A stretch of 64,000 nucleotides of DNA from Gemmatimonadales bacterium (GTDB taxonomy: Bacteria > Gemmatimonadota > Gemmatimonadetes > Gemmatimonadales > GWC2-71-9), in assembly GCA_037189525.1 (NCBI GenBank), contig JBBCJC010000002.1, positions 320,001-384,000 of the forward strand, read 5' to 3'. Below are positions 5,134 through 22,096 of the stretch, piece after piece. Numbering within the stretch: position 1 is the first letter of the stretch; each line of letters opens with the position of its first letter. The notes under the pieces were generated by a model. It saw nothing but the letters and a program-made list of their open reading frames with translations, searched no databases and had not been told where the DNA came from. The translations under genes and the position numbers were made by a program.

Positions 5134-6276
5134 ATGCGCACCCTGCTCTTCCTGATTCGGAAAGAATACCTCCAGATTTTCCGCGATCGGGCCACGGTCT
5201 TCCAGATCTTCTTCATTCCGATCGTGCAGCTCCTGCTGCTCTCGAACGCGGCGACCTTCGGAATCACCAACGCGCGGATGCACGTCGTCGATCTCGACCG
5301 GAGCACGATGTCACGTGGTCTGGTGGAGCACCTCGTTGCATCGGGCCGGTTCGTGGTATCGTCGGCGGTGCCGTCGCAGGAGGCCGCCAATCAGAGCCTG
5401 CTCGATCGCGAGGCCACCGTGATCCTGACCATTCCGTCCCGCTTCGAGCGCGACCTGGTCCGCCAGGGCACCGCCCCGGTGCAGCTCGTTCTCAACGCGG
5501 AGGAGGGAGCGGCCGCGGGGATCGTTCAGGCCTATGCGCTGCAGATCATCGGCGACTATGGTCGCCAGCTTGGCATCGAACTGCGCCCCCAAACGGACCC
5601 GCGGATCGATCCGGCCCCGAGGGCGGCCACGGCGGCGTTCGACGTTCGTGCCCGCAGCTGGTTCAACCCGACGCTCAACTACAAGCACTACATGGTGCCG
5701 GGCATCCTCGTCTCCCTCGTCACGATCATCGGGATGCTGCTCACCGCGCAGAACATTGCCCGGGAAAAGGAGGCCGGCACGCTCGAGCAGCTCAATGTCA
5801 CCCCGATCACCAAGGGGCAGTTCATCGCGGGAAAGCTGCTGCCCTTCTGGCTGCTGGCGCTGGTGATGTTCAGCCTCGGTCTGATCGCCGGTAAGCTGGC
5901 GTTCGGAATTCCGATGCGCGGCAACCTGCTGCTCGTCTTCTTCTCGGCGGCGGTATATCTGACCGTGGCCCTGGGGACCGGCCTCTGGATCGCCACCATC
6001 GCGTCGACCCAGCAGCAGACCATGTTCGTCTCGTTCTTTGTGCTGGTGATTTACCTGCTGATGAGCGGTCTCTTCACACCGATCGACAGCATGCCCACCT
6101 GGGCGCAGTGGATGGCCGAGCTGAATCCGGTCAAGCATTTCGTGGTCATCATGCGTGCCGTGCTGGTGCGAGGCGCCGATCTGAGCGGTATCGCCGTACC
6201 GCTCGGCGCGCTGGCGACGCTCGGCCTGCTGGTGTTGACGGCTGCAGTCCGCCAGTATTCCAAGACTCACGGCTGA
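5134..6276 (+). CDS. ABC-2 type permease
   Basis: REKEAGTLEQLNVTP, MSGLFTPIDSMP. Confidence 0.93.
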   Translation: MRTLLFLIRKEYLQIFRDRATVFQIFFIPIVQLLLLSNAATFGITNARMHVVDLDRSTMSRGLVEHLVASGRFVVSSAVPSQEAANQSLLDREATVILTIPSRFERDLVRQGTAPVQLVLNAEEGAAAGIVQAYALQIIGDYGRQLGIELRPQTDPRIDPAPRAATAAFDVRARSWFNPTLNYKHYMVPGILVSLVTIIGMLLTAQNIAREKEAGTLEQLNVTPITKGQFIAGKLLPFWLLALVMFSLGLIAGKLAFGIPMRGNLLLVFFSAAVYLTVALGTGLWIATIASTQQQTMFVSFFVLVIYLLMSGLFTPIDSMPTWAQWMAELNPVKHFVVIMRAVLVRGADLSGIAVPLGALATLGLLVLTAAVRQYSKTHG

Positions 6277-6291
6277 CCTATCAGACCGCGC

Positions 6292-6340
6292 ATGCTCCGC
6301 GTCCTGATTGCCCTATGCCTGGCTGGCCCCCTGGCGGCGT
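6292..6340 (+). pseudogene. 5' remnant (signal peptide only) of a DUF885 gene
   Basis: MLRVLIALCLAGPLAA matches MIRVLLAFCIAAPLTA of the intact gene at 20420; similarity stops abruptly. Confidence 0.7.
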
Positions 6341-6592
6341 CAACGGCGCGATCTACTAGTTGGCGCGCTCAATCAGGCCGGGTTCCAATGCAAGCCACCG
6401 CAAGGCGCGCACCATATCCTGGCGGATTTACGGCAATCCGCCGAGTGGCTGACTATCGAGGGCGGCGTGGCGACGGTGCCGGGCACCAGCTTCTTTTCCG
6501 ATTCCCAGATGGGGCGGGACTACACACGATTCGCGTTCTGTAGGACGGAGGATCCGCTGCACGCGGCGGTGGAGCGGCGGCGGCGGTTGTAA
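6332..6592 (+). pseudogene. C-terminal fragment of a class I/II PLP aminotransferase
   Basis: RRDLLVGALNQAGFQCKPPQGA...GGVATVPGTSFF...YTRFAFCR; no N-terminal part or PLP-lysine region. Confidence 0.75.
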
Positions 6593-7044
6593 AGCCTGGC
6601 TGCGAGCCACCGACCGGAGCAGCTGAGGTGGCGGACAGTCCCGTTCGCGATTGGTCACCTAAGGCCAGTTGTTCGTCCGGCTGCGTTCATGTGAGCTTCC
6701 ACATGATCCGCATAAGTTGCGTATCTACAACATGTTACAGGATGACAGAACCTGGCTCATAACTTGAGATAGCATCACGCCAACCCCTTCCGGCGAGGCT
6801 ACGGGCAATGCATGCACCCTTCATCGTTGGGGCGATCGGGGGGGCGATCAGCTCTTCCTCCTTCAAGAGCACTCCCCAGTTGCAGCAGACCACGTCGTCC
6901 GATACCTGGTCCTGCAGTCCACCTCGGGGCCGCCAACTAATGTCATCGAACGAACGGCAGCAGTTGCTCAACCGACTGCTACCCGTTCACGTCGTCCTGA
7001 TGCTAGCATGCATTGAATGTCTACAAGCTTTGCGAGATATGTAG

Positions 7045-7761
7045 ATGGGAAACGCTGGCACCGCACAAGTATACATCCGGAACGGCATCTATTTCGTGAC
7101 GATCGACGGTGAGGGCATCGTTATGGACCTTCCGGGTGATCGGTACTATGGCCTTAGTGAGTTCGGTGCTATGGTCTGGCAAGCGATTGAACAAGGTCAC
7201 ACGGCTGCTGTGCCATTCCCTGAAAACCAATTTGCCCAGCAAGTGGACGAATGGGTACGGCTCGGCTTGATGACATTTCACGATCGGCCCCAAGTAGAGA
7301 TACCTATACGAAAGGAAGCCGGTACGCCTGCCATTAAGGCGTTTGATGATACTGTAGCACTGCAAGCCTCCTTTTCATGGACAGTGCTATGTCGCCTGTT
7401 TCTCTCTACGTGGCGGGTCAACCGAATACTCCGTCATCAAGGGATATGCGTTGCGTTGAAGCAAATTCAAGAGATTGCCATCGTCGACGAACTTAAAACG
7501 GACCATTGCGAACGACAACTTGGCAAGATCATCCGTACCTATCGCCTAGGGCGGCGCGTACTTAGCCAAGGTCAGGAAGATTGCTTGCCCCGCTCGCTGG
7601 CCCTGGCATATGTCCTCCGTCATGCTGGCATCGAAGCCGAAGTGTGCTTCGGAGTACGGCAGTTCCCGTTCTATGCGCATGCGTGGGTGGAAGCTAATGG
7701 AAGAGTTCTTAACGATGAGATCACAACGATCGGCTCCTACGCGGTTCTAGCACGATTCTGA
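7045..7761 (+). CDS. Lasso peptide B protein, fused RRE (PqqD-like) plus transglutaminase-like leader peptidase
   Basis: N-term DGEGIVMDLPGDRYYGLSEFGAMVWQAI (RRE); C-term CLPRSLAL...FGVRQFPFYAHAWVE...VLND. Confidence 0.92.
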   Translation: MGNAGTAQVYIRNGIYFVTIDGEGIVMDLPGDRYYGLSEFGAMVWQAIEQGHTAAVPFPENQFAQQVDEWVRLGLMTFHDRPQVEIPIRKEAGTPAIKAFDDTVALQASFSWTVLCRLFLSTWRVNRILRHQGICVALKQIQEIAIVDELKTDHCERQLGKIIRTYRLGRRVLSQGQEDCLPRSLALAYVLRHAGIEAEVCFGVRQFPFYAHAWVEANGRVLNDEITTIGSYAVLARF

Positions 7762-7782
7762 CAGCCTCACTAGGAGTAACGC

Positions 7783-9657
7783 GTGCATGGTTTTGTTGTG
7801 CGGTATATGAAAGCGATTGATGAACAGCAACCGCCAGTGCTTGACGTTTGCCAGGATGACAGGATTGGCCTAGCTGCAGGAAGGCGCTTCCGACTGCTAG
7901 TGCGGCCACTCCCGACAACACCAGAAGCAGAAGCCGAACGTCAACCGTATGTATTCGGGCACACCGTCGCTGTGTATCAGGGCCGGATAGACAATCGGCG
8001 TGAGATCATCGATCGAATTGGAGACTCACTGCTTGAGCAGGTCGGGGACAGCGAGCTTATTGCACGTGCCTATTCTAAGTGGGGGGCCAACTTCCCTGCT
8101 ATAGTACTGGGGGAGTACTCATTTGCGTTGATCAACCAGCATACAGAACAACTTATTGCCGGAAGAGACAGCCTTGGTATCGGTCATTTGTTCCAATATC
8201 AAGATACGAGCGCTGTCTGGGTCGCATCAAACCTGGAGATTCTGCTCGCCGCACTTCCGAGTCGCCCCTCATTTGACCGTAGTGCGCTGGCTGAATATAT
8301 CGCCACCGGCGGCTTACTCGTATCCGGTCGAACTATCTATACTGGGATCGATGAAGTTCCAGCCGCACATGTTCTAGTTCAGAGTGGAGCTGCCGTTACC
8401 GTTACGCGATACTGGGAGCCTGTTCCGGAATCACAGGCTCGTCTTCGCGGACCTGACGAATATGATGAAGAATTCAGGTCAATCCTATCGGCAGCCGTGA
8501 AGGCGGCTCTCCGATCCAATACACCAGTATGGTCGGACCTTTCGGGTGGACTCGATTCATCTACAGTGACCGCGCTCGCTGCGTCGCTTGATTGCAGTGG
8601 TAACGACGGTATAACAGCATTCTCGATGTCAGCATCGATGACAGCACTAAGCAACGAGAGCCCCTTTCAGGATGATTTCATTGCCCGTTACCCTATTCAA
8701 CAACATCGCCTCGACATTGATGACTATTTGAGCTTTGGGACACCCGAACCGCCATCATGCCACCCGTCTAAAGCGATCATTTATCGGCCGATTCGTCAGG
8801 CTACCGCCGAACTTTTTGCTCAGCATGGCGCGCAGACTCACCTCACTGGCCGTGGTGGCGACAACATCTTTTGCGGCGATGAGTTTCCACCAAGATACCT
8901 TGCCGGGTTGTTACGTGGACTCAAACTGCGCCAATGGATCCGAGAGATAAACGATTGGGCACGTCAAGGAAAACGGAGTCTATGGAATCTTGTGTGGCAT
9001 TGTAGTCGGTCGAGCTTAACGGACTTGTACGCCGGCGAAGCAGACCGCGGAATCGTTCCGACTTGGTTGATCGCTCCGTTTCGTGACCAGGTAACCCAGA
9101 TAGATGAAGGTCAGTGGACGTCAGGATACCGATTGTACAGCGACCCGGGTCGAGAACTTCAGTATCGCTCAATACAAATGACGTCAAGGGTTGTCCGCTT
9201 CATGCCTGTTGGCGATGAGCGGCACCCGTTGCTATACCGGCCCCTTGTAGAATTTGTTCTCGATCTTCCCTGGGAGCACCTCCTTCGACCAGATGAGAAC
9301 CGCATTATCCAGCGACGCGCTCTACGCAACGTCCTTCCAGAAAGCATCCGTCTTCGGACCTCAAAGACCAGTGCGACCCCCGTGTTTCTACGTGGGTTGC
9401 GCCGCCACTGGACAACTGTACGACACTATACCGAGGGACGGCGCCTAGCGGAGCTTGACATCCTTGACCCTATCCCTTTTCACGCCGCGTGCGAGCGCCT
9501 TCGGCATGGGCTGCTAGCAAAGCAGTTTCGCTACCTAGTTGGTGCCTTGACCCTCGAAATCTGGCTGGAGGCGAACTCCAATCCAGTGCGTGACCAAGCT
9601 ACAGCCGGATTCTTCGCCGCCGACCACAGCATAGGCCAAATGAAGTGCATGAACTAA
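7783..9657 (+). CDS. Lasso peptide cyclase (asparagine synthetase-like C protein)
   Basis: GRIDNR, GRDSLG, PP-loop DLSGGLDSS, LTGRGGD, RHPLLYRPLVEF; no N-terminal catalytic Cys; adjacent to B protein. Confidence 0.92.
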   Translation: MHGFVVRYMKAIDEQQPPVLDVCQDDRIGLAAGRRFRLLVRPLPTTPEAEAERQPYVFGHTVAVYQGRIDNRREIIDRIGDSLLEQVGDSELIARAYSKWGANFPAIVLGEYSFALINQHTEQLIAGRDSLGIGHLFQYQDTSAVWVASNLEILLAALPSRPSFDRSALAEYIATGGLLVSGRTIYTGIDEVPAAHVLVQSGAAVTVTRYWEPVPESQARLRGPDEYDEEFRSILSAAVKAALRSNTPVWSDLSGGLDSSTVTALAASLDCSGNDGITAFSMSASMTALSNESPFQDDFIARYPIQQHRLDIDDYLSFGTPEPPSCHPSKAIIYRPIRQATAELFAQHGAQTHLTGRGGDNIFCGDEFPPRYLAGLLRGLKLRQWIREINDWARQGKRSLWNLVWHCSRSSLTDLYAGEADRGIVPTWLIAPFRDQVTQIDEGQWTSGYRLYSDPGRELQYRSIQMTSRVVRFMPVGDERHPLLYRPLVEFVLDLPWEHLLRPDENRIIQRRALRNVLPESIRLRTSKTSATPVFLRGLRRHWTTVRHYTEGRRLAELDILDPIPFHAACERLRHGLLAKQFRYLVGALTLEIWLEANSNPVRDQATAGFFAADHSIGQMKCMN

Positions 9658-9737
9658 ATGACTTGCTCAGCCGGATGCCAGCTCCCCACGGTTCGAGCAT
9701 TTCTTTATCGGGAGCATTTCTCAAGACGAGGTGTATC

Positions 9738-9923
9738 ATGGAACGGAAGCAGAGCGCCCTCAGGCAGATCAACAGCACTGGTGGCAAGACCGAGTTCACG
9801 CCGACGCCGCTCGGCACTGTGTCCGGCACGAGGGTCCTGGGCCTGGATCGCCTCACGGGTACGATTCCTGGTTGTACCGCGTGCGACTTTAACACAGACT
9901 ACGCGAAGGGTGTGTTCGGCTGA
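9738..9923 (+). CDS. Lasso peptide precursor (61 aa)
   Basis: GAGGTG RBS at 9728-9733, ATG 9738; MERKQSALRQINSTGGKTEFTPTPLGTVSGTRVLGLDRLTG-TIPGCTACDFNTDYAKGVFG; LGxxxxT leader end with Asp at core position 9; directly after cyclase and followed by a hairpin. Confidence 0.75.
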   Translation: MERKQSALRQINSTGGKTEFTPTPLGTVSGTRVLGLDRLTGTIPGCTACDFNTDYAKGVFG

Positions 9924-9962
9924 AAATCGCTGAACCATACACCTGCAACAAAGGATGACAAC

Positions 9963-10018
9963 GGTGTGCACCCGTTCACTAGCCTCAAGCTAGCCTAGTA
10001 CACGGAACGGGTGCCACC
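9963..10018 (+). promoter_or_regulatory. Stem-loop downstream of the precursor gene
   Basis: GCACCCGTTC (9968-9977) pairs with GAACGGGTGC (10005-10014); extra ACTAG/CTAGT and GGTG/CACC pairing; no U tract. Confidence 0.6.
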
Positions 10019-10068
10019 AATGTCAGCCGAACCTGTCGCTGCCAGTGTAGGTCTGCACCGGAGACAAG

Positions 10069-11676
10069 ATGGTTTATCGTAAGAATCCTCACGAGACTGT
10101 TGGCTTGGTGTTGATCGCTTCTTGCGACGTTGATCCCTTACGCCAGGCCCTTCAGGTGGCTCTAGCACAGCGTGGAATCCGCTGCATCGTCGAGACGGCT
10201 ACGTGGGCCGCAGTGCAACCGGTCGACATGGCTACAAATCCCGAAGTACTACTACTACTCCCTTGGGATCTTGTCGCTGATCTTTCCTGGTGTCGCGGTG
10301 TCCCAGCCGATCCACCAGACCTCAGACAGCTTGAGTTGCGAATGGAAGAAGTCATCCAGTGGCTCGCAACACGGCACAACACCACGTTCGCGTATCTCCC
10401 TGCACCAATCCCACCGATTTGCGGCCGGGGACGCGACAATCGAATCCTAGCAAATACTCTCGTACGCGCCGTCAGCCGACTTTCGCCTATCGTATTGCCG
10501 TCAGAGATGTTCTCCTGCACCAGCTTATTCGATCATGGGTGCGCTATCGCCGATACAGCCCTTAGCACAGCCGCTGAGATACTCATTCGGACTGCAATGG
10601 CTGAATCGACAACTACGGCTAAGGTCCTTGTAACGGACTGTGATCATGTGCTGTGGAGTGGGGTAGTGGCGGAAGATGGTGTCGAAGGCATTTCATTTGG
10701 TCCTTGTGGGCAAGGATATCCCCATTTTGCCTACCAACGACTGCTAGTTCGACTGAAGCGTGACGGGATATTGCTCGCCGCGGTAACACGGAATGATCCC
10801 GAGGTAGTCGGTCCATTACTCGCAAGCGGTCGGTTGCAGCTCAACGACGGGGATTTTGTAGCAGGGATCGCCAGCCACGATGCTAAATCAGCACAGATCC
10901 GGCAGTTATCGGAACAGCTCGGACTGTCCTTGGATTCTTTTGTATTCGTCGACGATAATCCAGTGGAGCTGGCTGAAGTTGCCAGTGCACTTCCCAAGGT
11001 TCGGTGTCTTCAGTTCCCCGAGGACGTGCGCAACTTCCCCTCGTTTCTCGAGGAACTGGCTGGGCTATTCCCCAGAGGAATCAGGACCGCAGAGGATCGC
11101 GACCGAACCGCATACTACCGCCAGCGATTGGAGGGTGTACAACCGAGTCAACTGTCGGGGGCGGATCTCAGCCAATTTCTGCGGGGCTTGGAAATGCGAC
11201 TAACCGTCGAGAATCGAACGCACAGTGATTCCACAAGGGCGCTACAGCTCATCAATAAGACCAACGTATTCAACTTGAACGGCCATCGTTTTTCCGATCG
11301 CGAGATAACAGAGCTGCTTGTCAACGGAGGCCAGCTATGGACGGCAACGCTCGAGGACCGGACCGGCAATCACGGTGAAGTATTGGCATGCTTAACCGAT
11401 GGGGACAATGTGGTACGGTCTTTTGCAATGTCGTGTCGTGTTCTTCAGCGGCGAGTTGAGTATGCTTTCCTTGTCTGGTTCACGCGCCTTTCGAACGCAC
11501 CCCAGAAATGGCAGTTTGTTCCTACCGACCGGAACGAACCAATGCGGCGCTTCTTCGCTGACCCTGCCTTTAGGTCGTTAGGACCCGACGAGCCAATGCG
11601 GCTCGACACCAAAGCTTTTGCGACTACACACGCTGACGACCTAAGTTTATTCGATCTTCGTACCGTAGGAGTATGA
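10069..11676 (+). CDS. FkbH-like HAD-IIIC protein (glyceryl transferase/phosphatase family)
   Basis: KVLVTDCDHVLWSGVVAEDG, FVFVDDNPVE, QLINKTNVFNL, LEDRTGNHG, FAMSCRV. Confidence 0.9.
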   Translation: MVYRKNPHETVGLVLIASCDVDPLRQALQVALAQRGIRCIVETATWAAVQPVDMATNPEVLLLLPWDLVADLSWCRGVPADPPDLRQLELRMEEVIQWLATRHNTTFAYLPAPIPPICGRGRDNRILANTLVRAVSRLSPIVLPSEMFSCTSLFDHGCAIADTALSTAAEILIRTAMAESTTTAKVLVTDCDHVLWSGVVAEDGVEGISFGPCGQGYPHFAYQRLLVRLKRDGILLAAVTRNDPEVVGPLLASGRLQLNDGDFVAGIASHDAKSAQIRQLSEQLGLSLDSFVFVDDNPVELAEVASALPKVRCLQFPEDVRNFPSFLEELAGLFPRGIRTAEDRDRTAYYRQRLEGVQPSQLSGADLSQFLRGLEMRLTVENRTHSDSTRALQLINKTNVFNLNGHRFSDREITELLVNGGQLWTATLEDRTGNHGEVLACLTDGDNVVRSFAMSCRVLQRRVEYAFLVWFTRLSNAPQKWQFVPTDRNEPMRRFFADPAFRSLGPDEPMRLDTKAFATTHADDLSLFDLRTVGV

Positions 11677-11720
11677 ACTCATGAACTAGTCCATCCGCTA
11701 AAGCAGCAATCGAGTAAGCA

Positions 11721-14333
11721 ATGAAAAAAAACTTGTCACTTGATGCCATACGCGAATGGAACAGCATCTACTGGCCGACTCTGTCGCCCGATGGACAGTG
11801 GTTCGCTTGCTGCGTTGCACACGGCTCCGGCCTTACAACGTTGCTCGTTACAGGAACATCTACTCAATACAAATGGCGTCTCTCACTTAGCCTCAAGATC
11901 CCGAAGGCAGACCTCAAGACAGCGCCATTCAGCTTCTCGATGGACTCCCGCTGGCTCGTTGCAATTCACGCAGGTGGCGCCAAACTCATATCGATTAGCT
12001 CTGGCATCGTCCGTCAAATTGACGGTGCGACAAAAGTTGCTTTCAATAGTCCTTTATCGAGTTGGATTGCCGTAGAATACCGCAGCACTGTGAACGGCAA
12101 ATGTTCTCTGCTGCTATACAACCTCAGTACAGGCCATACCGTACGTATCGCAGAGGGGGTACGCGACTGGACTTTTAGGCCCGATGGCAGAGTGATCGCT
12201 TGGATTAAGAATTCCGAATCCGGTGCGGATCAGCTCATATGTCATAGCATGGGTACCGGCATCGAACAGGTTTTGTACCGAAGCACCCATGGCGAGCTCA
12301 CAAATCTTGGTTGGTCAACACTAGGGGAAAACGCTCTGATCGCGGTATCTCTGGGTCGGAGTACCGACCCAGGCCATGTCGTGGTCGCTAAGCGGATTCC
12401 ACTTAGAGCGTCGGACCCATCGGCTATCGTGTGTGTGGTACCGATTCCAGACGGAAAAATTGTTCCGACCCGCGACCTAATTGGACCACGCTTGGCCGCT
12501 GATGGTAAGCGGCTCATTATTCCATTGGCAACGCAAAACAGAACGTCTGACCGACAATCCCAACAGACCGAAAGGGTCGGAACCGGCGGGGTTACCTCCG
12601 ATAAAAACCCTATTGTCTGGCATTGGCGAGACCGTCAGTTACCCTCCCGACGCTGTAAAACACCGCCGGTACCGGATGTCATAGCGATCGTCTCGATCGA
12701 GGACGGTGTGACAGTATCGATCGAAGTTGGCACAGGGGCCGACCTCGTTTTGTTATCGGATGACAGGTATGCGATCTACAGCGATCACAGACCGTACGAA
12801 CGGGAAACCAGTATGTGTGGGCTCGTCTATCGAGACCTCTATATTGTTAACACACACACAGGTGACCGCCGACGCATCGAAACCCGGCTGCCTAATGTAG
12901 CCCATTGTGATACAGATCTCCCCTCGCCCGACGGTCGGCTCTTTCTGTACTGGAATGGTGCGACCGGTGAGTACATCGTGCTCGACGCGGCCACGGGTAG
13001 CGTTCGCGATATCACTCGCGGAATGTCCGTGAGTTTCGTAGACGATGATTGCGACTACAACGTCCCCTTTCCACCGATTCCGCCCGTGGGCTGGTGCACG
13101 AATAGTCGAGCGGTTGTGCTATGTGACGGATGGGACCTTTGGATTGTACCGATCGGCGAAGGAAAGCCAAGTCGGCTGACACCATCCGGACGAGAGACGA
13201 GTATCAGGTATCGTCGTGTCACACAGGCGGGCCAAAGCCGAGGCAACATCGATCTGAATCGGGACGTCTTTGTCCATATGTATGGGGAGCAGTCGAAACG
13301 CGAGGGGATTGCCCGGATTACTTGCAATAGTGACAATGGATTTCACGTCTTGCTCTGGGACAATGCGAAAATTTGGTGGACACACGCACTACAGGCCGAG
13401 ACTTTAGCGTATAGCCGCCAAACGTTTGTATGCTGTCCAGACTGGTTCGTTGTCGGCACAGATCATCGTTTGACGAATATCAATCCACAGCAAGCAGACT
13501 ACAACTGGTCCCCTGGAACTCGGCTGATCAACTATACGGATGCCTACGGAAAACACCTTCAAGCGGCTCTCTTCTTACCAAGCAACTATCAAGCCGGTGC
13601 AAAGTACCCTACTATTGTCTCCATATACGAGAAGCTATCGGGAACGTTGCACCGCTATGAACCACCAGACCTAGCTCGCATCGTCAATACCAGCATCTAC
13701 ACCAGTTGCGGCTATGCAGTCCTTCACCCCGATATCCGTTATATCATTGGTGAGCCTGGGCTCTCTGCAACCGAATGTGTGGTACGAGGGACTGAGGCCG
13801 CGATACAAACTGGAATCGTCGACCCAGACCGGATCGGCCTCTTCGGTCATTGCTGGGGCGGTTACCAAGCCGCAGCGATTGCGGCCAACTCCTCGTTATT
13901 CAGAGCGGTTGCCGTTAGCGGCGGTATTACAGATCTGGTGACAATGTACTATTCTGTATACTGGAAAACTGGTGAGTCAAACCAGGCTCTTATGTTGGCC
14001 AATCAAGGACGAATGGCGGGACCGTTTTTCGAGCATCCGAGCGCCTTTGTCCGTAATTCGCCACTGTTTGTTGCCGATCGCATCAATTCACCGATGTTGA
14101 TTCTTCATGGCGACAACGATGACGTAGTAGATTTTAACCAAGCGGTTACACTGTACAATGCGTTGCGGCAGTTGGGGCGTCAGGTCGTACTGATACAGTA
14201 TCCTGATGAAGGGCACTCGTTGCGATACCCACGAAACCAACACGACGCCATAGGCCGAGTCCGAGATTTCTTTGATTCGATGCTACAAGATACCACACCG
14301 CCCACATGGCTCGACGTAGGGGTTTCTCGCTAA
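11721..14333 (+). CDS. S9 (prolyl oligopeptidase family) peptidase, candidate lasso isopeptidase, Cys at nucleophile position
   Basis: Beta-propeller repeats (SPDG), GLFGHCWGGY, HGDNDDVV, PDEGH; no signal peptide. Confidence 0.85.
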   Translation: MKKNLSLDAIREWNSIYWPTLSPDGQWFACCVAHGSGLTTLLVTGTSTQYKWRLSLSLKIPKADLKTAPFSFSMDSRWLVAIHAGGAKLISISSGIVRQIDGATKVAFNSPLSSWIAVEYRSTVNGKCSLLLYNLSTGHTVRIAEGVRDWTFRPDGRVIAWIKNSESGADQLICHSMGTGIEQVLYRSTHGELTNLGWSTLGENALIAVSLGRSTDPGHVVVAKRIPLRASDPSAIVCVVPIPDGKIVPTRDLIGPRLAADGKRLIIPLATQNRTSDRQSQQTERVGTGGVTSDKNPIVWHWRDRQLPSRRCKTPPVPDVIAIVSIEDGVTVSIEVGTGADLVLLSDDRYAIYSDHRPYERETSMCGLVYRDLYIVNTHTGDRRRIETRLPNVAHCDTDLPSPDGRLFLYWNGATGEYIVLDAATGSVRDITRGMSVSFVDDDCDYNVPFPPIPPVGWCTNSRAVVLCDGWDLWIVPIGEGKPSRLTPSGRETSIRYRRVTQAGQSRGNIDLNRDVFVHMYGEQSKREGIARITCNSDNGFHVLLWDNAKIWWTHALQAETLAYSRQTFVCCPDWFVVGTDHRLTNINPQQADYNWSPGTRLINYTDAYGKHLQAALFLPSNYQAGAKYPTIVSIYEKLSGTLHRYEPPDLARIVNTSIYTSCGYAVLHPDIRYIIGEPGLSATECVVRGTEAAIQTGIVDPDRIGLFGHCWGGYQAAAIAANSSLFRAVAVSGGITDLVTMYYSVYWKTGESNQALMLANQGRMAGPFFEHPSAFVRNSPLFVADRINSPMLILHGDNDDVVDFNQAVTLYNALRQLGRQVVLIQYPDEGHSLRYPRNQHDAIGRVRDFFDSMLQDTTPPTWLDVGVSR

Positions 14334-14366
14334 ATTGCCGCACGGTGGCAGAGGATCGAGGATCCA

Positions 14367-16790
14367 ATGATCTCCCTAGTGCATGACGTCCGTCAGGCAG
14401 TTCGCAACATCCGCAATCACCCCGGCTTCGCGAGTCTAGCCGTTCTGGCTCTCGCACTCGGTATAGGCGCTGCTACGACTATCTTCAGCGTCCTCCAGCA
14501 TGTCCTTTTCAAGCCATTCCCCTATACTGATGCAGAACGTATAGTCGTTGTTCAAGTCCGGCGGTCAGATGCCGATCGTCGCAGCTGGCGCTCAGCCTTT
14601 CCGATCGCGGAGTTCCGCGAGTATGCCACACAGAGCGCCGTCTTCGCTGAGGTCGCAGCCGATGCTGTGGATGAGGTGCTGTTTGATACGTCGGAAGGCA
14701 TAGAGCATCTGCGTGGTGCGCTCGTGTCTGGCAACCTGTTTGCTTTTCTCGGCGTCCATCCTGTCCTAGGTAGGGGCATAGCGCCAGATGATGCGGCACC
14801 CGGGGCACCGGCTGTTTTCGTCATTAGCAATCGAATGTGGCGGGCACGGTTTGGCTCCGACCCTTCGGTCGTCGGGCAAACCTATGCGCTAAACGGAATG
14901 CCGACGGTACTGGTCGGCATCATGCCACCTCAATTCGCTCACCTGGACGCAGACCTCTGGCGGCCGGTGTCGCTCGATCAGCCGAGCCGTGATGCAGGTA
15001 GTCGTTTCTACAATCTGAAGGCGCGCCTCGCTCCCGGAGTAAGCACTACTGCTGCCGAGGCCCACCTGCAGTCGATCGCCACCAGAATCGCACCAGTCTT
15101 TCCGAGAATCTATCCGGAAGGCTATCGTGTGCACGTCGTCCGGTGGATCGACAGCGTAGTAGGCCCATTTCGCGCTACACTCTACATACTTGCTGCCGCC
15201 GTTGCAGTCCTCCTATTGATTGCCTGTGCCAACGTCGCCAATATGCTCTTAGCGCGTGCCAGTACGCGCGAAGGCGAACTGGCTATACGCGCCTCTCTCG
15301 GCGCCAGCCGGAGCGCTCTCGTCAGACAGCTCCTGATCGAGAGCTCGCTGTTGGCTGCGGCTGGAGCCCTCATCGGCGTCCTGGCAGCGGTCTTGGGTGT
15401 TACCTTCCTGGTGCGCATCCTTCCCGATCAGCTAATCCCTCCCGAGGCAACTATACGGATCAATCTCCCGGTGCTTGTCTTTGGCATCGTGCTCGCCTTC
15501 AGCACAGTACTCATCTTCGGCCTAGTACCCGCGTTACGGACCGCACATCGCGATCTCGTTTCATCCGTCCCGTCGGCAGCGCGCAGCACCAGTACAAAGA
15601 GCCAGACCACGCTCAGCAGTATGCTCGTAGTCGCCCAAGTTGCGTTAGCGCTCGTTCTTGCAGTCGGGGCCGGTCTTCTCATCCGTACGTTTGTCAATGT
15701 ACGAAACGTTCAGCTCGGCTTCGACCCAGCAAACACGTTGGCACTAACAGTTCGTTTGCCGTCGAATGGCTCACCACTATCCGGTTCGCTGCTTGTCGGT
15801 CAAATTCTTGACAGATTACGGACTGTTCCCGCTGTGACGGCAGCGACAGTCACAAACGGGATCCCCGGATACGGCGGTCTGCGGACTGAGGTCGAAGTTC
15901 CAGGCCAGCCCACGGTTGAGCCAGGTACCATGTCACTCGTTCAATTCTCAAGCGAGGATCTCGCCAGCGTGCTTCGCCTCCCGATCCTGCGAGGTCGTTT
16001 TTTGTCACGAGACGATATCACCGCTGGTCGGCGGGTAGCCGTTGTCAACGAGGCACTGGCACAACGGTATTTTGGTCATACGGACATCGTTGGGCGCTCG
16101 GTGCGCTTGAACATACTCGCGCTCCTGGCTGGCAATGCGGCGGACACGACAAGTTTCGAAGTGGTCGGCATTACCGCAGATGCTAAGAATCACGGGATCC
16201 AAGAGCCGGCAATTCCGGAGTCGTTCGTTCCATACTCACTCGCAAGCCTACCAAATTATGTACTGCTGATCCGAACTTCTGGATCACAGTTGGCGCCGTT
16301 TGACATCACCCGACAGCTGCGAACTGTCGACCGCGGCATCGTAGTCACTGAGAACCGGCGGCTTATCGAGTACCTACAAAAGTTCTCGTACTCCGAACCT
16401 CGTTTCGGCGTCGCCGTCCTCGGTATGTTTGCTAGTACTGCCCTTATCCTGGTGGCTCTTGGAGTGTATGGCGTGGTTGGGTATACGACCTCACGCCGAA
16501 CTCGAGAATTCGGCATCCGGCTTGCTCTTGGTGCGACGCCGGCGACCATTCAAAGACATGTGATCGGCCGTTCCCTCCGCCTAGTTGGGTTTGGTCTCGT
16601 ATTCGGGCTAATCGCCGCATTTGCAGTTACCCAACTCATCAGAAGTCAACTCTGGGGTGTACCGCCACGGGATCCCATGACCTTAGCCATTGCCGTCAGC
16701 GTGGTACTCATCGTGGGAATTGTAGCATGCTGGGCCCCCGCACGCCGGGCAACAAGTATTGATCCGACCGTTACGATGCGGAGCGAATAA
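14367..16790 (+). CDS. Duplicated MacB/FtsX-type ABC permease (ADOP-like)
   Basis: LALGIGAATTIFS, LLIACANVANMLLARA, RRTREFGIRLALGA, PARRATSIDP. Confidence 0.92.
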   Translation: MISLVHDVRQAVRNIRNHPGFASLAVLALALGIGAATTIFSVLQHVLFKPFPYTDAERIVVVQVRRSDADRRSWRSAFPIAEFREYATQSAVFAEVAADAVDEVLFDTSEGIEHLRGALVSGNLFAFLGVHPVLGRGIAPDDAAPGAPAVFVISNRMWRARFGSDPSVVGQTYALNGMPTVLVGIMPPQFAHLDADLWRPVSLDQPSRDAGSRFYNLKARLAPGVSTTAAEAHLQSIATRIAPVFPRIYPEGYRVHVVRWIDSVVGPFRATLYILAAAVAVLLLIACANVANMLLARASTREGELAIRASLGASRSALVRQLLIESSLLAAAGALIGVLAAVLGVTFLVRILPDQLIPPEATIRINLPVLVFGIVLAFSTVLIFGLVPALRTAHRDLVSSVPSAARSTSTKSQTTLSSMLVVAQVALALVLAVGAGLLIRTFVNVRNVQLGFDPANTLALTVRLPSNGSPLSGSLLVGQILDRLRTVPAVTAATVTNGIPGYGGLRTEVEVPGQPTVEPGTMSLVQFSSEDLASVLRLPILRGRFLSRDDITAGRRVAVVNEALAQRYFGHTDIVGRSVRLNILALLAGNAADTTSFEVVGITADAKNHGIQEPAIPESFVPYSLASLPNYVLLIRTSGSQLAPFDITRQLRTVDRGIVVTENRRLIEYLQKFSYSEPRFGVAVLGMFASTALILVALGVYGVVGYTTSRRTREFGIRLALGATPATIQRHVIGRSLRLVGFGLVFGLIAAFAVTQLIRSQLWGVPPRDPMTLAIAVSVVLIVGIVACWAPARRATSIDPTVTMRSE

Positions 16791-16830
16791 ATCTTCGGTC
16801 GTGCGGATCATCACTATTGTCAACGAAAAT

Positions 16831-17865
16831 TCATCGGGCCTTGTGGCCTGGCCCGACCGTAGCTCGATGTTCGATCGACGATCGCTCCTTTCGAAGCGAG
16901 ATTCCGTAACGCTGTAGCTCCTTGAAGAAGGTCGTACGGCCCAAGCCGAGAGCTAGTGCCGTACGCTCAGCATTCCAACTATTTGCAGCACAAAAGTCAA
17001 GAAGGCGGCCCCGCATCGTAACAGGTAGTGGTGTTTGTCGAGGCGCAACGCCACTTGGCATGTGAATTACCGCTGTCCCAAGTCCGAGGGATTCGGCCAC
17101 GACCCGACCATCGAGAACTCTCTCATCGGCGAGAAAGACAGCCCGCTCGATCGTACTCCAGAGTTCGCGCACGTTCCCTGGCCACCGGTGCCCGAGCAAC
17201 ACAGGTTCTGCACTTGGCGCCAGCTCGGCACCAGCCGGCGTAGCGAAATAACGGGCCAACAATATGACATCGCCCCAACGCTGGTCGAGAGGCAGCAGCG
17301 TAAGTACCGCACCAACTACCCGCTGCATCAGATCATATCGGACCAACCCATCGGCGACCTTATTACCCACATTCTCCTGGACTGCTGCGATGACGCGGAA
17401 GCGGCTTTGCCGCTTGGTTGTCTCGCCGACTCTACGGAAATTCTTGTTGTCCAAGACTCGAAGAAGCTTGCCCTGCGATTCATAAGGCATACTGCAAAGC
17501 TCATCGAGAAACAGGGTACCATTGTTCGCATCCTCGATCAAGCCAGATACACTTTCGATTGCACCGCTGAACGCCCCTTTGCGATGACCATATAGGGTGC
17601 CCTCGACAAGTTCGCGCGGGATGGCCGCGCAGTTCACATCAACGAGAGCGCCAGGCCGCCCACTCCATTGATGGATTTCCCTTGCAAACAACTCTTTCCC
17701 TGTTCCTGTAGCGCCGATGAGCAGAATCGGCAGGTCGCTTTTGGCAAAGCGTCTCGCATTTGCGACAGCATGTCGTATTTCTGGGGACGTTCCGAGTATC
17801 GTCGTTTCGGCAACTTCCCCGGCAACCTCGCCCGAAATCTCTACATCGCGAGCAGCATGCCGCAA
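16831..17865 (-). CDS. Sigma-54-dependent activator (AAA+ plus Fis HTH), no N-terminal sensor domain; start uncertain
   Basis: GATGTGKE, VNCAAIP, GAFSGA, LFLDEL, WPGNVREL, TALALGLGRTTFFKEL. Confidence 0.9.
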   Translation of the reverse strand: MRHAARDVEISGEVAGEVAETTILGTSPEIRHAVANARRFAKSDLPILLIGATGTGKELFAREIHQWSGRPGALVDVNCAAIPRELVEGTLYGHRKGAFSGAIESVSGLIEDANNGTLFLDELCSMPYESQGKLLRVLDNKNFRRVGETTKRQSRFRVIAAVQENVGNKVADGLVRYDLMQRVVGAVLTLLPLDQRWGDVILLARYFATPAGAELAPSAEPVLLGHRWPGNVRELWSTIERAVFLADERVLDGRVVAESLGLGTAVIHMPSGVAPRQTPLPVTMRGRLLDFCAANSWNAERTALALGLGRTTFFKELQRYGISLRKERSSIEHRATVGPGHKAR

Positions 17866-18517
17866 CCTGGAACGTTTTCTTGACGACCGTTCCAGACATG
17901 GCGCTCATCACTTTTTGACTAACTCGGGAGGTTGCGGTTCGGTGATCGTTTCCACATCGTCGTCCCTTCTGATGATGGTCGGCGCCAGAAAAAAATACGA
18001 ACGTTGTCTCGATCGACCGACTGTGTATGCCACCGAGCTACGCCCCTCTCGTTGGTAGGAAATGGGGAAACACCTAGTGGTCGGTCAGGACGACTTGGGC
18101 CGCGACGGCATCCTACGTTATGATTCCGTCTGGATCATAGCGTAGGACGCTGTACAACATATCGACGGACCTGAGCCCACCTCCACTTCGACCAGTATTT
18201 GTGTTACCTAGTCTAGGTGGTATTCAATCCGTAGACTTTGTCTGGATCGCATCCTCGATGGCTTTCCCCCGCGACGAGTCGTCTTCCCACTCTCCGCGAG
18301 ACCTTCTAGTAGGCGAGATACTCCTGCCGGAAAATGTCGTGCAGGCAAGACGTACATAACGCGTAAGACATGGGTTTTACTCGAGGGAACCCCAAAGACT
18401 GGAGTGCGGGTGGCGGGCCAGTGACGAAAGCACCAAACGCCATTGTACGACAACGGGTTAGCTCGCGGGGTGCGAGACTTAAAGTTGTAAATGGTTTCAC
18501 TTATGCTAGAGCAGTCG

Positions 18518-19467
18518 CTATCGATCTTTACGGACGTCCGTGGGCGCTTCGGCGAGGAGCTTGTAAAGCGACGGTCGCGAGATACCCATCAGGCGCCCAG
18601 CCTTGGCTTTGTTGCCATCTGTGGAGCGCATCATCTCTTGGGCTTCCTGGTGCTTGGTTTGACGCGCCTTCGCTTGTACTCAAATCGGCTTGGGAATATC
18701 GGATACTTGGATGGGACGTGGACTCCGCAGTCTGCTAGCGATGTACTGACAAACTGACCGGAGTTGTCTCATGTTTCCGGGCCACGGCGCTGTGCCAAGG
18801 ATCGCAGCAGCAGCAGCAGCAGACAGTACCGGCACAAAGTCGCGCCCCAGCTCGACGAATGCCTCCTGCAAGTACGCTGTCGCGAGTGGGTACTATTTCC
18901 CGATGGCGGTCACGCAGCGACGGCAGGGAACTGTAAGGCACTCCGCACGATAGAACAGTTCTTCGAAAAACAGGCCTTCTGGGAACGGGCTGCCAGATCC
19001 ACCGAGGTCGCGCAGATGATTCGGACATCAACTTTGCGCGGATGGCTATCGCCGATTCGTCGAATGAAGCCGGTCTCGAGAATGCCAAGGAGAGTTTGTT
19101 GAAAGCGATGTGATGCGTGTCCCAGCTCATCGAGGAGCAACGTCCCGGTATGTGCCTGTTCGACTAGGCCAACACGATCGTGATGGGCGCCTGTATATGC
19201 CCCTTTCGTTGAGCCGAGCAACTCTGCTTGCCGAAGTTCATCCGGAATGGACGTGACCGAAAGTTCCACAAAAGGGCTCGCCACGCGGGGTGATATCCGG
19301 TGTATATACCTCGCAAGCGTACTCTTCCCGGTACCCGTCGGACCAAGAATGAGTATTGGATAGGGTGTTTCCGCCAGATCCCTCACAAGGTGGTCAACCG
19401 TTGGGTGGGGTACAAGCTTCGCCTGTGTGCTCATGATACCAGCTTCCACGTCTTGATATGGGTACAC
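18518..19467 (-). pseudogene. Degraded sigma-54-dependent activator
   Basis: GPTGTGKS, GAYTGA, LLLDEL, then frame changes through ELFYR / LPSLRDR / WPGNMRQL, in-frame TGA at 18680-18682, then HTH GNKAKAGRLMGISRPSLYKLL ending at 18518. Confidence 0.85.
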
Positions 19468-19932
19468 ACCAACCGGGATGGCTTGTCACAATATCAACAT
19501 CGCGACGCACCTAGCGGGTGTGATGGGAGTCACATCCAACGTACATCCCTAGCGCCTTCCTGTGATGGGGTGCAAGAATTTACACAAAACGGCCGGCAAC
19601 GTTTGGGAAACGCGTGTCGAGCAACAATTGCACTCTATGCCTCGCTGGTACGTAGCTCTTTCGCCTCCCCCCGCATCCGCCGGATGGAATTGACCTGACT
19701 CCTTCTTGTAGGACAAAGGATCGCAGTAGTGTTGGTGCTGTTGTGGCCCTTCCTAAGCAATGATCGGCGATAGGTGAATCAATGTAGCCGTGTCGAGTCA
19801 GGAACGGTGTAAGACCAAGAAAACTGTCGATAGGTACGCAAGGATCGTGTCCACACGGTAGCTACGTATTACTGGCCACGGCATCACACGCGGTCATTCT
19901 CGCGACGCACGGATGTATCGATCCCTTTCAGC

Positions 19933-20400
19933 GTGCCCCTGCAAGCAGCAACTCGACGACGGCGCCCAAACGGCACCCTGCGCCCGATCCGCGCCGAATA
20001 CTTTTTGATCAACATGGTGTCGATAATCATCTTCCCGTTCCTGATCCGCCCCATGCCCGACGTGATCTTCGGCATCGGCGGCGATCGGTTCGACGCCTAC
20101 CTCACCGAGCGGCAACAGAGCCTGCCCGGATTCATCCGAAGCGCATTCCGACCATGATGTTCCTTTATCACACTCGCGCTGCTGAGCGCAGCTATTACCG
20201 CTCCGGCGCAGGACACGCTCCGACTGGAGGCGCTCCACGCCGCCACGCGGGATCGCGACCCGCGGGCGCGCCAGCTGCGGGCGGCGCTGGTGCGCGGTGC
20301 CGATCTCAGCGGTATCGCGGCACCGCTCGGCGCACTGGCGCTACTCGGCCTGCTGGTGTTAACGATCGCGGTCCGCCAGTATTCCAAGACGCACGGTTAG
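19933..20400 (+). pseudogene. Collapsed second copy of the TetR-TolC...permease operon (TetR 3' end, TolC 5' end, permease 3' end)
   Basis: 20030-20277 aligns with 1-247; 20276-20400 aligns with ~6152-6276; frameshifts in the TetR and TolC parts. Confidence 0.88.
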
Positions 20401-20419
20401 CGGCCTCCGAGGAGACTCC

Positions 20420-22096
20420 ATGATTCGCGTCCTGCTGGCTTTCTGTATTGCAGCGCCCCTCACGGCACAATCGGATCTCCGCTCGTTCCTTGAGACCTAC
20501 CAACAGGACCGTGGCGCGCTGCTCCGCCGCTGGGACGCGGAGTACTCTCCCGCGCGTCGAGCACGCCTGGTCCGTTTCTACCAGGAGACCCAGCAGGCCC
20601 TTCGCGCCACCGATTTCAACGCTTTGGACCGAGAAGGGAAGGCGGACTACGTCCTCCTCGACCACCGTCTGATCTACGAACGGGCCCTGCTGGACCTGGA
20701 AGCGCGACGCGCCCGCGACATGGCGCAGCTGGTCCCCTTTGCGCCCGCCGTCTTTCAGCTGCACGAGGCCCGGCGCGACCTGATCCCCGTCGATGGACGA
20801 ATCGCCGCGGATTCACTGGTGGCCATTGCCCGCCAGGCCGATGTGGCCCGGGCCGGACTCACCCGGCTCGACTCGCTGAACCGTCCCTCGCGCGTCACGG
20901 GCCTCCGGACCATCGAGGCCATCGACGGCTTCCGCACCCTGCTCCGCAACTGGTTCCGATTCTCCGAAGGCTACGACCCGATTTTCACCTGGTGGACCCA
21001 GGAACCCTACGGACGCGCCGACAGCGCGCTCGCCCGCTACCAGCGGGCCCTGCGCATCGAACTGGTTGGCCAGGCCCCTGGTGCGCCCGAACCGATCGTG
21101 GGCGACCCCATCGGCGTCGAAGGGATGCGTGCGGACCTGGCGCACGAGATGATTCCCTATTCGCCCGAGGAGCTGATCGCGATTGGTGAGCGGGAGTACG
21201 CCGTAGCCCTGAAGGAAATAATTCGCGCATCACGTGAACTCGGCTTCGGCGACGACTGGCGCCGCGCCGTGGAGCGCGTCAAAACGCTGCACCTTCCGCC
21301 AGGTGGGCAGACGGCACTGAGCACCGAACTGGCGCGCGAAGCAGAGACCTGGGTGCTGGAACGCGATCTTGTCACCATTCCGCCGCTGGCGCGGGAAATC
21401 TGGCGGATGGAGATGCTCTCCCCCGAGCGGCAGCGGGTCGCCCCGTTCTACCTGGGCGGTGAGACGATCCTCGTGGCATTCCCGACCGACGGAATGACCC
21501 ACGAAGAGAAGTTGATGTCGATGCGCGGCAACAACCCGCATTTCACCCGCGCGGTGGTCCATCACGAATTGATCCCCGGACACCATCTCCAGGGGTTCAT
21601 GACGGCGCGCCACTTCCCCTATCGCAGCATGTTCAACACCCCGTTCTGGGGCGAGGGATGGGCACTCTATTGGGAGTTCCGCCTCTACGACCTGGGCTTC
21701 CCGCGATCGGCCGAGGATCGGGTCGGGATGCTGTTCTGGCGGATGCATCGCGCCGCGCGGATCATCTTTTCGCTCAAGTTCCATCTCAACCAGATGACGC
21801 CCGAGCAGGCCATCGACTTCCTGGTCGATCAGGTGGGCCATGAACGTGCCAACGCCGAAGCGGAGGTGCGCCGCTCGTTCAACGGAACCTATCCGCCGCT
21901 CTACCAAGCCGGCTATATGCTGGGAGGCCTCCAGCTGCGCACACTGCACCAGGAATTGGTCGGGTCCGGCAAGATGACAGAACGGGCCTTCCATGATGCA
22001 GTGCTGACGGGCGGGCGAATGCCGATTGCGATGGTGCGCGCCCGGCTTGCGGGGCAGTCGTTCGATCGCTCGGGTCCCGCGCCCTGGCGGTTCTGA
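20420..22096 (+). CDS. DUF885-family secreted protein (putative metallopeptidase)
   Basis: GAGGAG RBS, signal peptide, HELIPGHHLQ and EGWALY motifs. Confidence 0.88.
   Translation: MIRVLLAFCIAAPLTAQSDLRSFLETYQQDRGALLRRWDAEYSPARRARLVRFYQETQQALRATDFNALDREGKADYVLLDHRLIYERALLDLEARRARDMAQLVPFAPAVFQLHEARRDLIPVDGRIAADSLVAIARQADVARAGLTRLDSLNRPSRVTGLRTIEAIDGFRTLLRNWFRFSEGYDPIFTWWTQEPYGRADSALARYQRALRIELVGQAPGAPEPIVGDPIGVEGMRADLAHEMIPYSPEELIAIGEREYAVALKEIIRASRELGFGDDWRRAVERVKTLHLPPGGQTALSTELAREAETWVLERDLVTIPPLAREIWRMEMLSPERQRVAPFYLGGETILVAFPTDGMTHEEKLMSMRGNNPHFTRAVVHHELIPGHHLQGFMTARHFPYRSMFNTPFWGEGWALYWEFRLYDLGFPRSAEDRVGMLFWRMHRAARIIFSLKFHLNQMTPEQAIDFLVDQVGHERANAEAEVRRSFNGTYPPLYQAGYMLGGLQLRTLHQELVGSGKMTERAFHDAVLTGGRMPIAMVRARLAGQSFDRSGPAPWRF

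Follow-up and report, generated by a model that had tools for sequence, protein, structure and literature searches.

The classes of lasso peptides rest on disulfides that join ring to loop, ring to tail, or tail to tail, and cysteines that lie within the ring fit none of them. These three links are the only lasso disulfides on record in the available parts of ten sources (PMC13352647, PMC9266682, 10.64898/2026.10.14.759041, PMC12214591, 10.1101/2020.11.25.399105, 10.1101/2024.10.25.620295, PMC6784204, PMC7168211, PMC7689547, PMC7489565), which mention neither an FkbH-containing nor a metal-binding lasso. Engineered stlassin variants carry ring–loop links, according to the available part of one report (PMC9266682). 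Class I peptides (humidimycin, siamycin, sviceucin) share with the family described here a nine-residue ring on Asp9, and their tie between ring Cys7 and the tail, as given in the available part of PMC7168211, resembles a cysteine pair in five relatives. However, class I peptides have Cys1 and two fixed disulfides, whereas here residue 1 is Thr, Ser or a bulkier residue and Cys1 occurs in 0 of 27 cores; no Cys lies in the loop or tail of the window peptide, and Cys8 is the constant. Class III (BI-32169) and class IV (LP2006, pandonodin, felipeptins) likewise have two core cysteines. Their disulfide runs from ring to tail or within the tail in the available text of PMC13352647 and HighFold-Lasso (10.64898/2026.10.14.759041), whereas both cysteines here fall in the ring: the window core has no tail Cys to match class III (Cys7 and Cys17 occur together in 5 of the 27 cores), and in the supported register both cysteines precede Asp9, unlike class IV. 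Class II lassos with starts other than Gly (fusilassin, Trp1–Glu9; halolassin, Tyr1–Glu8; Thr1 cores in LassoPred) show that a bulky residue 1 can be accepted, but they lack a conserved Cys beside the acceptor, and the present family differs from them in its P-x-x-L-G leader and longer spacer to Thr(-2). Whether the window peptide belongs to class II would turn on whether Cys5 and Cys8 are oxidized; as predicted from its sequence, it fits no disulfide class unless its thiols remain free.

The locus lies in a 64,000-nucleotide window (the whole stretch of DNA analyzed) from a Gemmatimonadales bacterium. A host in the Gemmatimonadota is also probable from a second lasso precursor of the genome, which is much like a LassoPred row carrying that label. 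An earlier note, made from the letters alone, had proposed a lasso precursor with Thr40 as the -2 residue, Asp50 as the acceptor, and a Thr1–Asp9 ring holding two cysteines. Our analysis supports this proposal. Very probably the gene specifies a lasso peptide, one belonging to a soil family that seems not to have been described before; in this family a Cys always adjoins the ring-closing Asp and the cyclase has apparently changed in step, which hints at sulfur chemistry new to lasso peptides. The features are as follows.

6273..20275, no strand: low-GC island that holds the cluster, bounded by a 121-bp direct repeat
7045..7761, forward: fused RRE and leader peptidase B (Cys180, His212); NF033537, 75.4 bits against a cut-off of 33
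7783..9657, forward: lasso cyclase C, asparagine-synthetase fold, with His327 (8761-8763) and His353 (8839-8841)
9728..9733, forward: ribosome-binding site GAGGTG, read from the sequence, 4 nt ahead of the ATG
9738..9923, forward: lasso precursor A, 61 aa (41-aa leader, 20-aa core), from ORF calls and a family of 29
9801..9815, forward: leader motif P-x-x-L-G (residues 22-26), predicted RRE-binding strand; P, L, and G in 29/29
9855..9857, forward: Thr40, the -2 residue, invariant in 29/29
9861..9887, forward: predicted nine-residue ring Thr1–Asp9 (putative closure) with Cys5 (9873-9875) and Cys8 (9882-9884)
9900..9908, forward: Tyr14-Ala15-Lys16, predicted threaded segment and plugs (putative role); Ala15 in 27/27
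9953..10028 (approximate ends), forward: long RNA hairpin 3′ of the precursor gene, from folding (z = -3.66)
10069..11676, forward: FkbH-like HAD enzyme, catalytic motifs kept and N-terminus diverged; TIGR01686, 192 bits against a cut-off of 146.65
11721..14333, forward: S9-family hydrolase without a signal peptide, Cys711 (13851-13853) at the catalytic Ser position
14367..16790, forward: ADOP-family ABC permease, possible exporter; TIGR03434 over cut-off

The cluster genes lie on one strand in the order RRE-peptidase B, cyclase C, precursor, FkbH, S9 hydrolase, and ADOP permease, with gaps of 21, 80, 145, 44, and 33 bp between successive genes. A short precursor clustered with a leader peptidase and an asparagine-synthetase-like cyclase is the arrangement of a lasso locus. 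B scores above the leader-peptidase cut-off and retains its catalytic Cys and His, and its PqqD matches fall below cut-off. The permease is weakly linked to the peptide because its own genome holds ∼54 such matches. The island is ∼54% GC in a 65% GC genome, and the two copies of the flanking repeat (6152-6272 and 20276-20396, 121 bp) are 85% identical. A second direct repeat (19944-20277 and about -86 to 247; 335 bp, 84%) was also observed; together the two repeats bracket the island plus the preceding ABC-transporter operon, which suggests a history of duplication or insertion. The island also contains two sigma-54 activator-like ORFs on the reverse strand (16831-17865 and 18910-19467, the second short) with 83% and 81% identity to copies 50–60 kb upstream on the same contig. 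A 78-aa ORF directly 5′ of B (6808-7044) has no family match and is probably not a gene.

The precursor is encoded by a 61-codon ORF nested in a 92-aa GTG-start call that begins at 9645, as the earlier note had recognized. The ORF itself, its GAGGTG site, its GC3 of 0.77 (against 0.52–0.59 in the adjacent B, C, FkbH, S9, and permease genes), and 28 homologues all agree with that recognition. The homologous small proteins (n = 28) are mostly 50–66 aa long; the shorter start at 9738 is therefore favored, and the 92-aa start was rejected. Two longer homologues (78 and 83 aa) look like over-extended calls. Over 6000-20500 the window shows 0 differences from a Logan contig (depth 112) assembled from what is probably its source run, a soil metagenome; this contig excludes assembly error only, because it comes from the same sample and is not independent. 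Behind the stop codon, the folded segment 9915-10075 was more stable than all of its shuffles (0/200 equally stable), and we infer that the hairpin stabilizes the mRNA. A scan for promoters and terminators gave results at chance level. The ESM Atlas offered no named family for the precursor, the lasso precursor models in NCBIfam and Pfam matched 0 of the 29 family members at E 0.1, and no family member matched a solved structure. The 61-codon ORF is a genuine gene within a lasso cluster.

A single-sequence search with the window precursor returned only itself, and the family was reached through the cyclase. Searches with the window cyclase led to a subfamily at 32–62% identity. A single-protein cyclase scan of genome contigs gave no match, and scans with cyclase alignments contained one in-clade locus only among the best 80 of 603 and of 605 stretches. 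The earlier note had asked for homologous precursors beside cyclases, and two were found directly. At one locus (L034), directly behind a 48%-identical cyclase, lies a precursor that shares Thr(-2), Thr1, and Pro-Gly-Cys-x-x-Cys-Asp with the window peptide. At another (L032/L033), a 38%-identical cyclase precedes a precursor with the same leader and a Cys-free Gly1–Asp8 core in the same register; this Cys-free precursor (L032/L033:9908-10108) precedes several glycosyltransferase-like ORFs and may possibly yield a glycosylated lasso. A profile built from the window, L034, and L032/L033 precursors found 11 proteins among 1.84 billion representatives, from which P0143 (2,729 aa, six stretches) was dropped as not being a precursor. 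A wider profile found 26 proteins and, with P0139 and two cluster members, brought the family to 29 including the window (28 relatives): 27 of Cys type and two Cys-free. The 27 Cys-type precursors collapse into 16 clusters at 80% and 11 clusters at 70% identity. Eight further precursor–cyclase pairs share a source and exactly equal longest contigs (7502, 6035, 285375, 8837, 3577, 3433, 9242, and 43758 bases), which we read, indirectly, as co-location; the Cys group thus has two direct and eight indirect pairs. Counts within the family overstate the evidence because its sequences are kin. Moreover, Cys-Asp cores served as search seeds and the leader alone scores just 17–47 bits, so relatives lacking Cys8 are under-sampled and its invariance is partly selected.

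Among viral contigs, none of 71 stretches was a relative, and plasmids gave only matches below 30% among the 10 listed of 432. With the three-row precursor profile, 400 genomes of the phylum yielded none outside the own genome; the four weak matches (E 4e-4 to 0.01) in this sample include three in long frames. Among 301 genomes from the class of a Vicinamibacterales genome, the one match lies inside an unrelated 419-aa protein, and 301 genomes from the class of a Pyrinomonadaceae genome contained no precursor. The only match among 330 genomes of the own family occupies a frame opposite a Lon-like gene, and five single genomes had no member. In total, ∼1,300 genomes sampled with precursor profiles gave no further member; two unpublished genomes (G090 and G1075) are counted in tallies only. 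Seven precursors (P0150, P0152, P0156, P0157, P0140, P0135, and P0162) carry a conserved acidic C-terminal extension ending in G-T-L-x-E, which is perhaps a follower or second recognition site. Separately, a candidate precursor lies upstream of a B gene beside a 37%-identical cyclase outside the clade (L038:3-173). Its Trp-rich core has Cys at 8 and Asp at 10, so that a 7–9 ring counted from Thr(-2) would need a different acid.

Alignment of the family supports the register originally proposed. Pro22, Leu25, Gly26, Leu39, and Thr40 are invariant in 29/29. The leader shows P-x-x-L-G instead of the actinobacterial YxxPxL motif, which is not universal among lasso leaders. The 14 residues from its L-G to Thr40 are unusually many. 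Thr at -2 is reported as general for lasso precursors in the available part of PMC6784204. An acid falls at core position 7–9 throughout: Asp9 in 27/27 of the Cys type and Asp8 in the two Cys-free relatives. The earlier note had made conservation of Thr40 and Asp50 among homologues a test of its reading, and both proved invariant in the Cys group; the 20-residue core counted from Thr40, with Cys5, Cys8, and Asp9, stands as first described. A start one residue earlier leaves an acid at 7–9 in just 11/27. A start one residue later (ring 1–8) retains one in 27/27; nothing but the Thr(-2) rule and the Gly1–Asp8 outgroup excludes it. Residue 1 is Ser in 11, Thr in 10, Ile in two, and Glu, Asn, His, or Val in one each; it is never Gly, the residue with which the Cys-free relatives start. 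Together, Ser or Thr at residue 1 (21/27) and the presence of Thr(-2), Cys8, Asp9, and Ala15 in 27/27, window included, support a predicted Thr1–Asp9 ring, and we regard a lasso with this ring as highly likely. Thr1 is an uncommon start but not a unique one: six Thr-start trigrams recovered 18 predicted cores in LassoPred, a lower bound for the Thr1 cores there.

A model of B, C, ATP, and the precursor points the same way. It scored 0.74, against 0.44 for the best of three controls; the mark it passed is reached by 116/157 solved complexes and 2/215 mismatched pairs. Contact agreement between runs was at least 45% and the partner pLDDT at least 42. The modelled leader (19-31) lies on the RRE (B 25-75) and residues 38-44 lie at Cys180/His212, and the core was left unplaced; the cut site is resolved more coarsely than one residue. 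The model may have passed owing to its likeness to solved RRE–leader complexes. We counted binding of the leader by the RRE of B as present on this modelled evidence.

In the scheme we favor, genes, motifs, conservation, covariation, and the cyclase clade are read directly, and the cut site, ring, threading, and thiol roles are predicted from them. The RRE of B would bind leader residues at about 20–30, and B would cut after Gly41, the core beginning two residues beyond Thr40. C would then adenylate Asp9 and join it to the Thr1 amine, so that the tail is caught within a ring of nine residues and five residues form the loop. Ala15 would thread the ring, flanked by Tyr14 on one side and Lys16 on the opposite side. 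Cys8 would most likely be retained as a free thiol for recognition by the cyclase via clade-specific histidines, and the product would bind a soft metal with Cys8 and whichever of Cys3, Cys5, and Cys11 are present. This account, a lasso of an apparently new Cys-ringed subfamily, we judge likely.

The cyclase phylogeny bears on this scheme. A tree of 53 sequences groups the 10 cyclases that have linked Cys8-Asp9 precursors, without exception, in a single clade of 25 (support 0.999); the other 15 members lack a linked precursor, and the cyclase of the Cys-free L032 falls outside the clade. His327 occurs in 24/24 clade members against 0/28 outside, Glu being the most frequent residue there. His353, immediately ahead of the TGxGGD loop, occurs in 24/25 against 1/28. 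We infer that this cyclase clade may read the Cys8 thiol through its histidines. C itself shares only ∼30% identity with ordinary lasso cyclases, and its scores do not reach the cut-offs of the NCBIfam models for such cyclases, NF033535 and NF033561 (225 of 525 and 150 of 300). Its SGGLDS ATP loop is invariant or nearly so and its fold is confirmed; the confident predicted structure (pLDDT 92) matches only asparagine-synthetase- and beta-lactam-synthetase-type structures, with no lasso cyclase among the solved structures matched. In 300 genomes of the order there was no in-clade cyclase, the best long matches being at or below 32%. The locus, as predicted, shows every lasso feature that could be tested except scores above the named-family cut-offs.

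The earlier note had taken the CxxC motif as the defining feature, which the family does not bear out. Cys5 occurs in 17/27 cores, Cys3 in 13/27, and Cys11 in 7/27, whereas Cys8 is constant and is the sole Cys in 5/27; Gly4 is present in 23/27. The hallmark of the family appears to be Cys8 beside the acceptor, not CxxC. The total number of cysteines is odd in 12/27 cores and three ring cysteines occur in 13/27, which fits metal binding better than fixed disulfides. Given a Thr1–Asp9 lasso, a role of the thiols mainly as metal ligands is possible and held tentatively; a role mainly in a Cys5–Cys8 disulfide is somewhat doubtful, as is enzymatic modification of Cys8 or its use as an acyl relay, and any other thiol role is improbable.

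The first alternative is that the Thr1–Asp9 lasso acquires a Cys5–Cys8 disulfide within its ring after export. If so, the 28-atom ring would become a 24-atom aperture and a 14-atom loop, a redox-tightened lasso outside classes I–IV. By arithmetic, a seven-residue ring closed on Glu has 23 atoms, nearly as few as these 24, so threading is conceivable, and a tighter aperture would account for the small residues at 14–15. Lasso disulfides also seem to form without dedicated enzymes, in the available part of PMC9266682, and the CxxC spacing of 17/27 cores would suit such a bond, which may form in the window member. However, retention of Cys8 in the 5/27 cores where it has no partner cannot be explained by a fixed Cys5–Cys8 disulfide, and no pairing rule covers all the patterns. 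Cys3 and Cys5 do not covary (p 0.69), and clean covariation is confined to Cys7 and Cys17, found together in 5/5 with no discordant case. We consider a lasso with such an intra-ring disulfide unlikely.

The second alternative makes Cys8 a chemical handle, either as a thioester relay by which the His-bearing cyclase acylates a bulky N-terminus, or as an acceptor for glycerate from FkbH. On the latter route, glycerate from 1,3-bisphosphoglycerate would pass to the ring thiol, directly or via Cys711 of the S9 hydrolase, and perhaps shift to the hydroxyl of Thr1 or Ser1. Known acylated lassos, namely albusnodin with its acetylated Lys and Snou-LP with a Tyr acylated by a CoA-transferase, also have an acyl-transfer gene beside A, B, and C, as described in the available part of PMC13352647; FkbH/glycerate chemistry is not described for them, and acylation here is hypothetical. 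The FkbH enzyme resembles those of glyceryl-ACP systems (tetronate, methoxymalonate, and ACP–FkbH–MaoC::SDR cassettes), whose cassette members are 45–50% identical to it, in scoring over its cut-off, in its motifs (DxD, DDNPVE, and the Cys of MSCRV), and in its acyl-accepting Cys. It differs in that its N-terminus is shortened and diverged and its cluster has no carrier protein, dehydratase, or GNAT. None of the 17 PF00550 matches in the genome falls in the window (divergent ACPs can score below that cut-off), and the gaps around FkbH are only 145 and 44 bp, whereas an ACP-like gene lies within ∼1.5 kb of FkbH in three of its five closest relatives.

Several observations agree with a handle. 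FkbH normally acylates a thiol, in the available part of PMC7489565; its motifs are intact here, with no carrier-domain match in the window. Cys8 is invariant and residue 1 is never Gly in 27/27, against the Gly start of the Cys-free relatives, and Ser or Thr1 could receive the shifted ester in 21/27. The S9 hydrolase has Cys711 where 50/51 matched stretches have Ser, a substitution confirmed in the source-run contig. It keeps its Asp and His motifs and starts right behind an in-frame stop, having lost the signal-like N-terminus of its two closest paralogues. As an S9 hydrolase adjoining a lasso cluster it recalls the AtxE2-family isopeptidases, but it differs in its Cys at the nucleophile position, its lack of a signal peptide, and its score of 83.6 bits against a lasso-isopeptidase cut-off of 400. 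S9 genes lie within 5 kb of a cyclase match in 23/193 loci.

Against a handle, FkbH is seen beside the present family once only, and L034 ends 31 bp past its precursor. FkbH was found in 1/190 cyclase loci (its own), which is no test of co-occurrence because the loci lie almost all outside the clade. The closest FkbH relatives (45–50% identity, in 5/340 other genomes searched) sit in surface-glycan clusters with GNAT and MaoC::SDR genes, and no precursor of the present family lies near any of the five; FkbH may be cargo, use another ACP, or be decaying, and S9 may be decaying too. An eight-membered Cys-Asp thiolactone would also presumably be strained. A cautious reading takes FkbH and S9 as cargo or decay in a mosaic island, a bold one as a putative carrier-less glycerate relay onto the peptide. 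We consider the handle as a whole unlikely. Its fullest form, in which the His-bearing cyclase activates Cys8, carrier-less FkbH and a cytoplasmic Cys-type S9 put glycerate on the ring, as a thioester on Cys or an ester on Thr1 after a shift, and the peptide replaces the ACP, is based on a single cluster and is decidedly unlikely. As a side observation, L243–L247 (G211, G169, G172, G084, and G092) form a distinct full-length FkbH subfamily whose glycan clusters contain ACP, MaoC::SDR, and GNAT genes; at L245 there are, in addition, PqqD and a lasso-B2-like gene with no evident precursor.

A third alternative is that B cuts elsewhere, giving an Ile1–Asp8 ring (one residue later), a Ser29–Asp37 ring after Val28 with Thr27 as the -2 residue, or Pro1–Asp7 after Ile43. 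Each puts Asp at 7–9 in the window peptide, which holds for Thr27 and for Thr42 as the -2 residue. The Ser1–Asp9 ring counted from Thr27 looks canonical and would leave both cysteines in a long, class IV-like tail, and the spacer before Thr40 is unusually long. But Thr27 was rejected, being Ala in nearly all relatives and sitting on the RRE in the model, and so was Thr42, kept in only 10/27; the invariance of Thr40, the Gly1–Asp8 ring that the Cys-free relatives give in its register, and the reported generality of Thr at -2 make another cut site very unlikely.

With Thr1–Asp9 retained as the preferred ring, its tail can be considered. Of the plugs suggested earlier, Phe10, kept in 3/27 only, and Phe19, absent from the 5/27 cores that stop at residue 17–18, were rejected; Tyr14 fits, and residues 14–16 are the probable thread. 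Position 14 is Tyr in 12, Asp in 10, Phe in three, and otherwise His or Trp (aromatic or His in 17/27); Asp14 (10/27) would be a weak plug for a nine-residue ring. Position 15 is always Ala, and position 16 is Lys in 16, Arg in five, Tyr in five, and otherwise His (27/27). This pattern suggests that Ala15 passes through the ring between residues 14 and 16 with a five-residue loop, a plausible size because lasso loops are given as 6.4 ± 3.5 residues in the available part of PMC12214591. The Cys7/Cys17 pair occurs in three lineages that are 31–38% alike in the core, one of which has sisters lacking both residues; the naive p of 1.2e-5 overstates the case, as kin are counted. Humidimycin has a Cys7–Cys19 disulfide on a 1–9 ring (available part of PMC7168211). 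Because it ties Cys7 to the tail, the covariation supports both register and threading, and it suggests that Cys7/Cys17 forms a ring–tail disulfide. Ala15 invariance and this covariation bear indirectly on the predicted macrolactam with a threaded tail. An unthreaded product (branched-cyclic or, for example, a Cys-Asp thiolactone) or a silent relic would suit the distant, below-cut-off cyclase, the absence of the island from the relatives searched, and the unusual changes in FkbH and S9, but it is highly improbable given the threading predicted from a small invariant Ala15 between larger residues and from Cys7/Cys17, the open state of all ORFs, and the retained catalytic motifs of B and C.

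Six core motifs of the family were all absent from the LassoPred table (4,749 precursors), and two leader motifs had no true match there; the capistruin control was recovered. The searchable LassoESM supplements contained no family motif. The literature searched holds no description of a Cys-ringed family; most subscription journals lie outside it, and an earlier listing of a member is possible. If our reading is right, a metal-binding lasso, a ring–ring disulfide, or a glycerate-decorated lasso would each be new by the surveyed literature. The family also offers a natural experiment in how cyclases choose residue 1 and read the ring, with seven starts in 27 cores and cyclases sharing two histidines absent from close outgroups. 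Lasso engineering would profit from a cyclase that tolerates Thr, Ser, Ile, Val, His, Glu, and Asn as residue 1. The same genome carries a second, ordinary lasso cluster (L001:8941-9060; G000:C3 at about 128.9 kb), with two S9 genes upstream and a 39-aa precursor whose Gly-start core is close to LassoPred row LP_MBX3145954_1.
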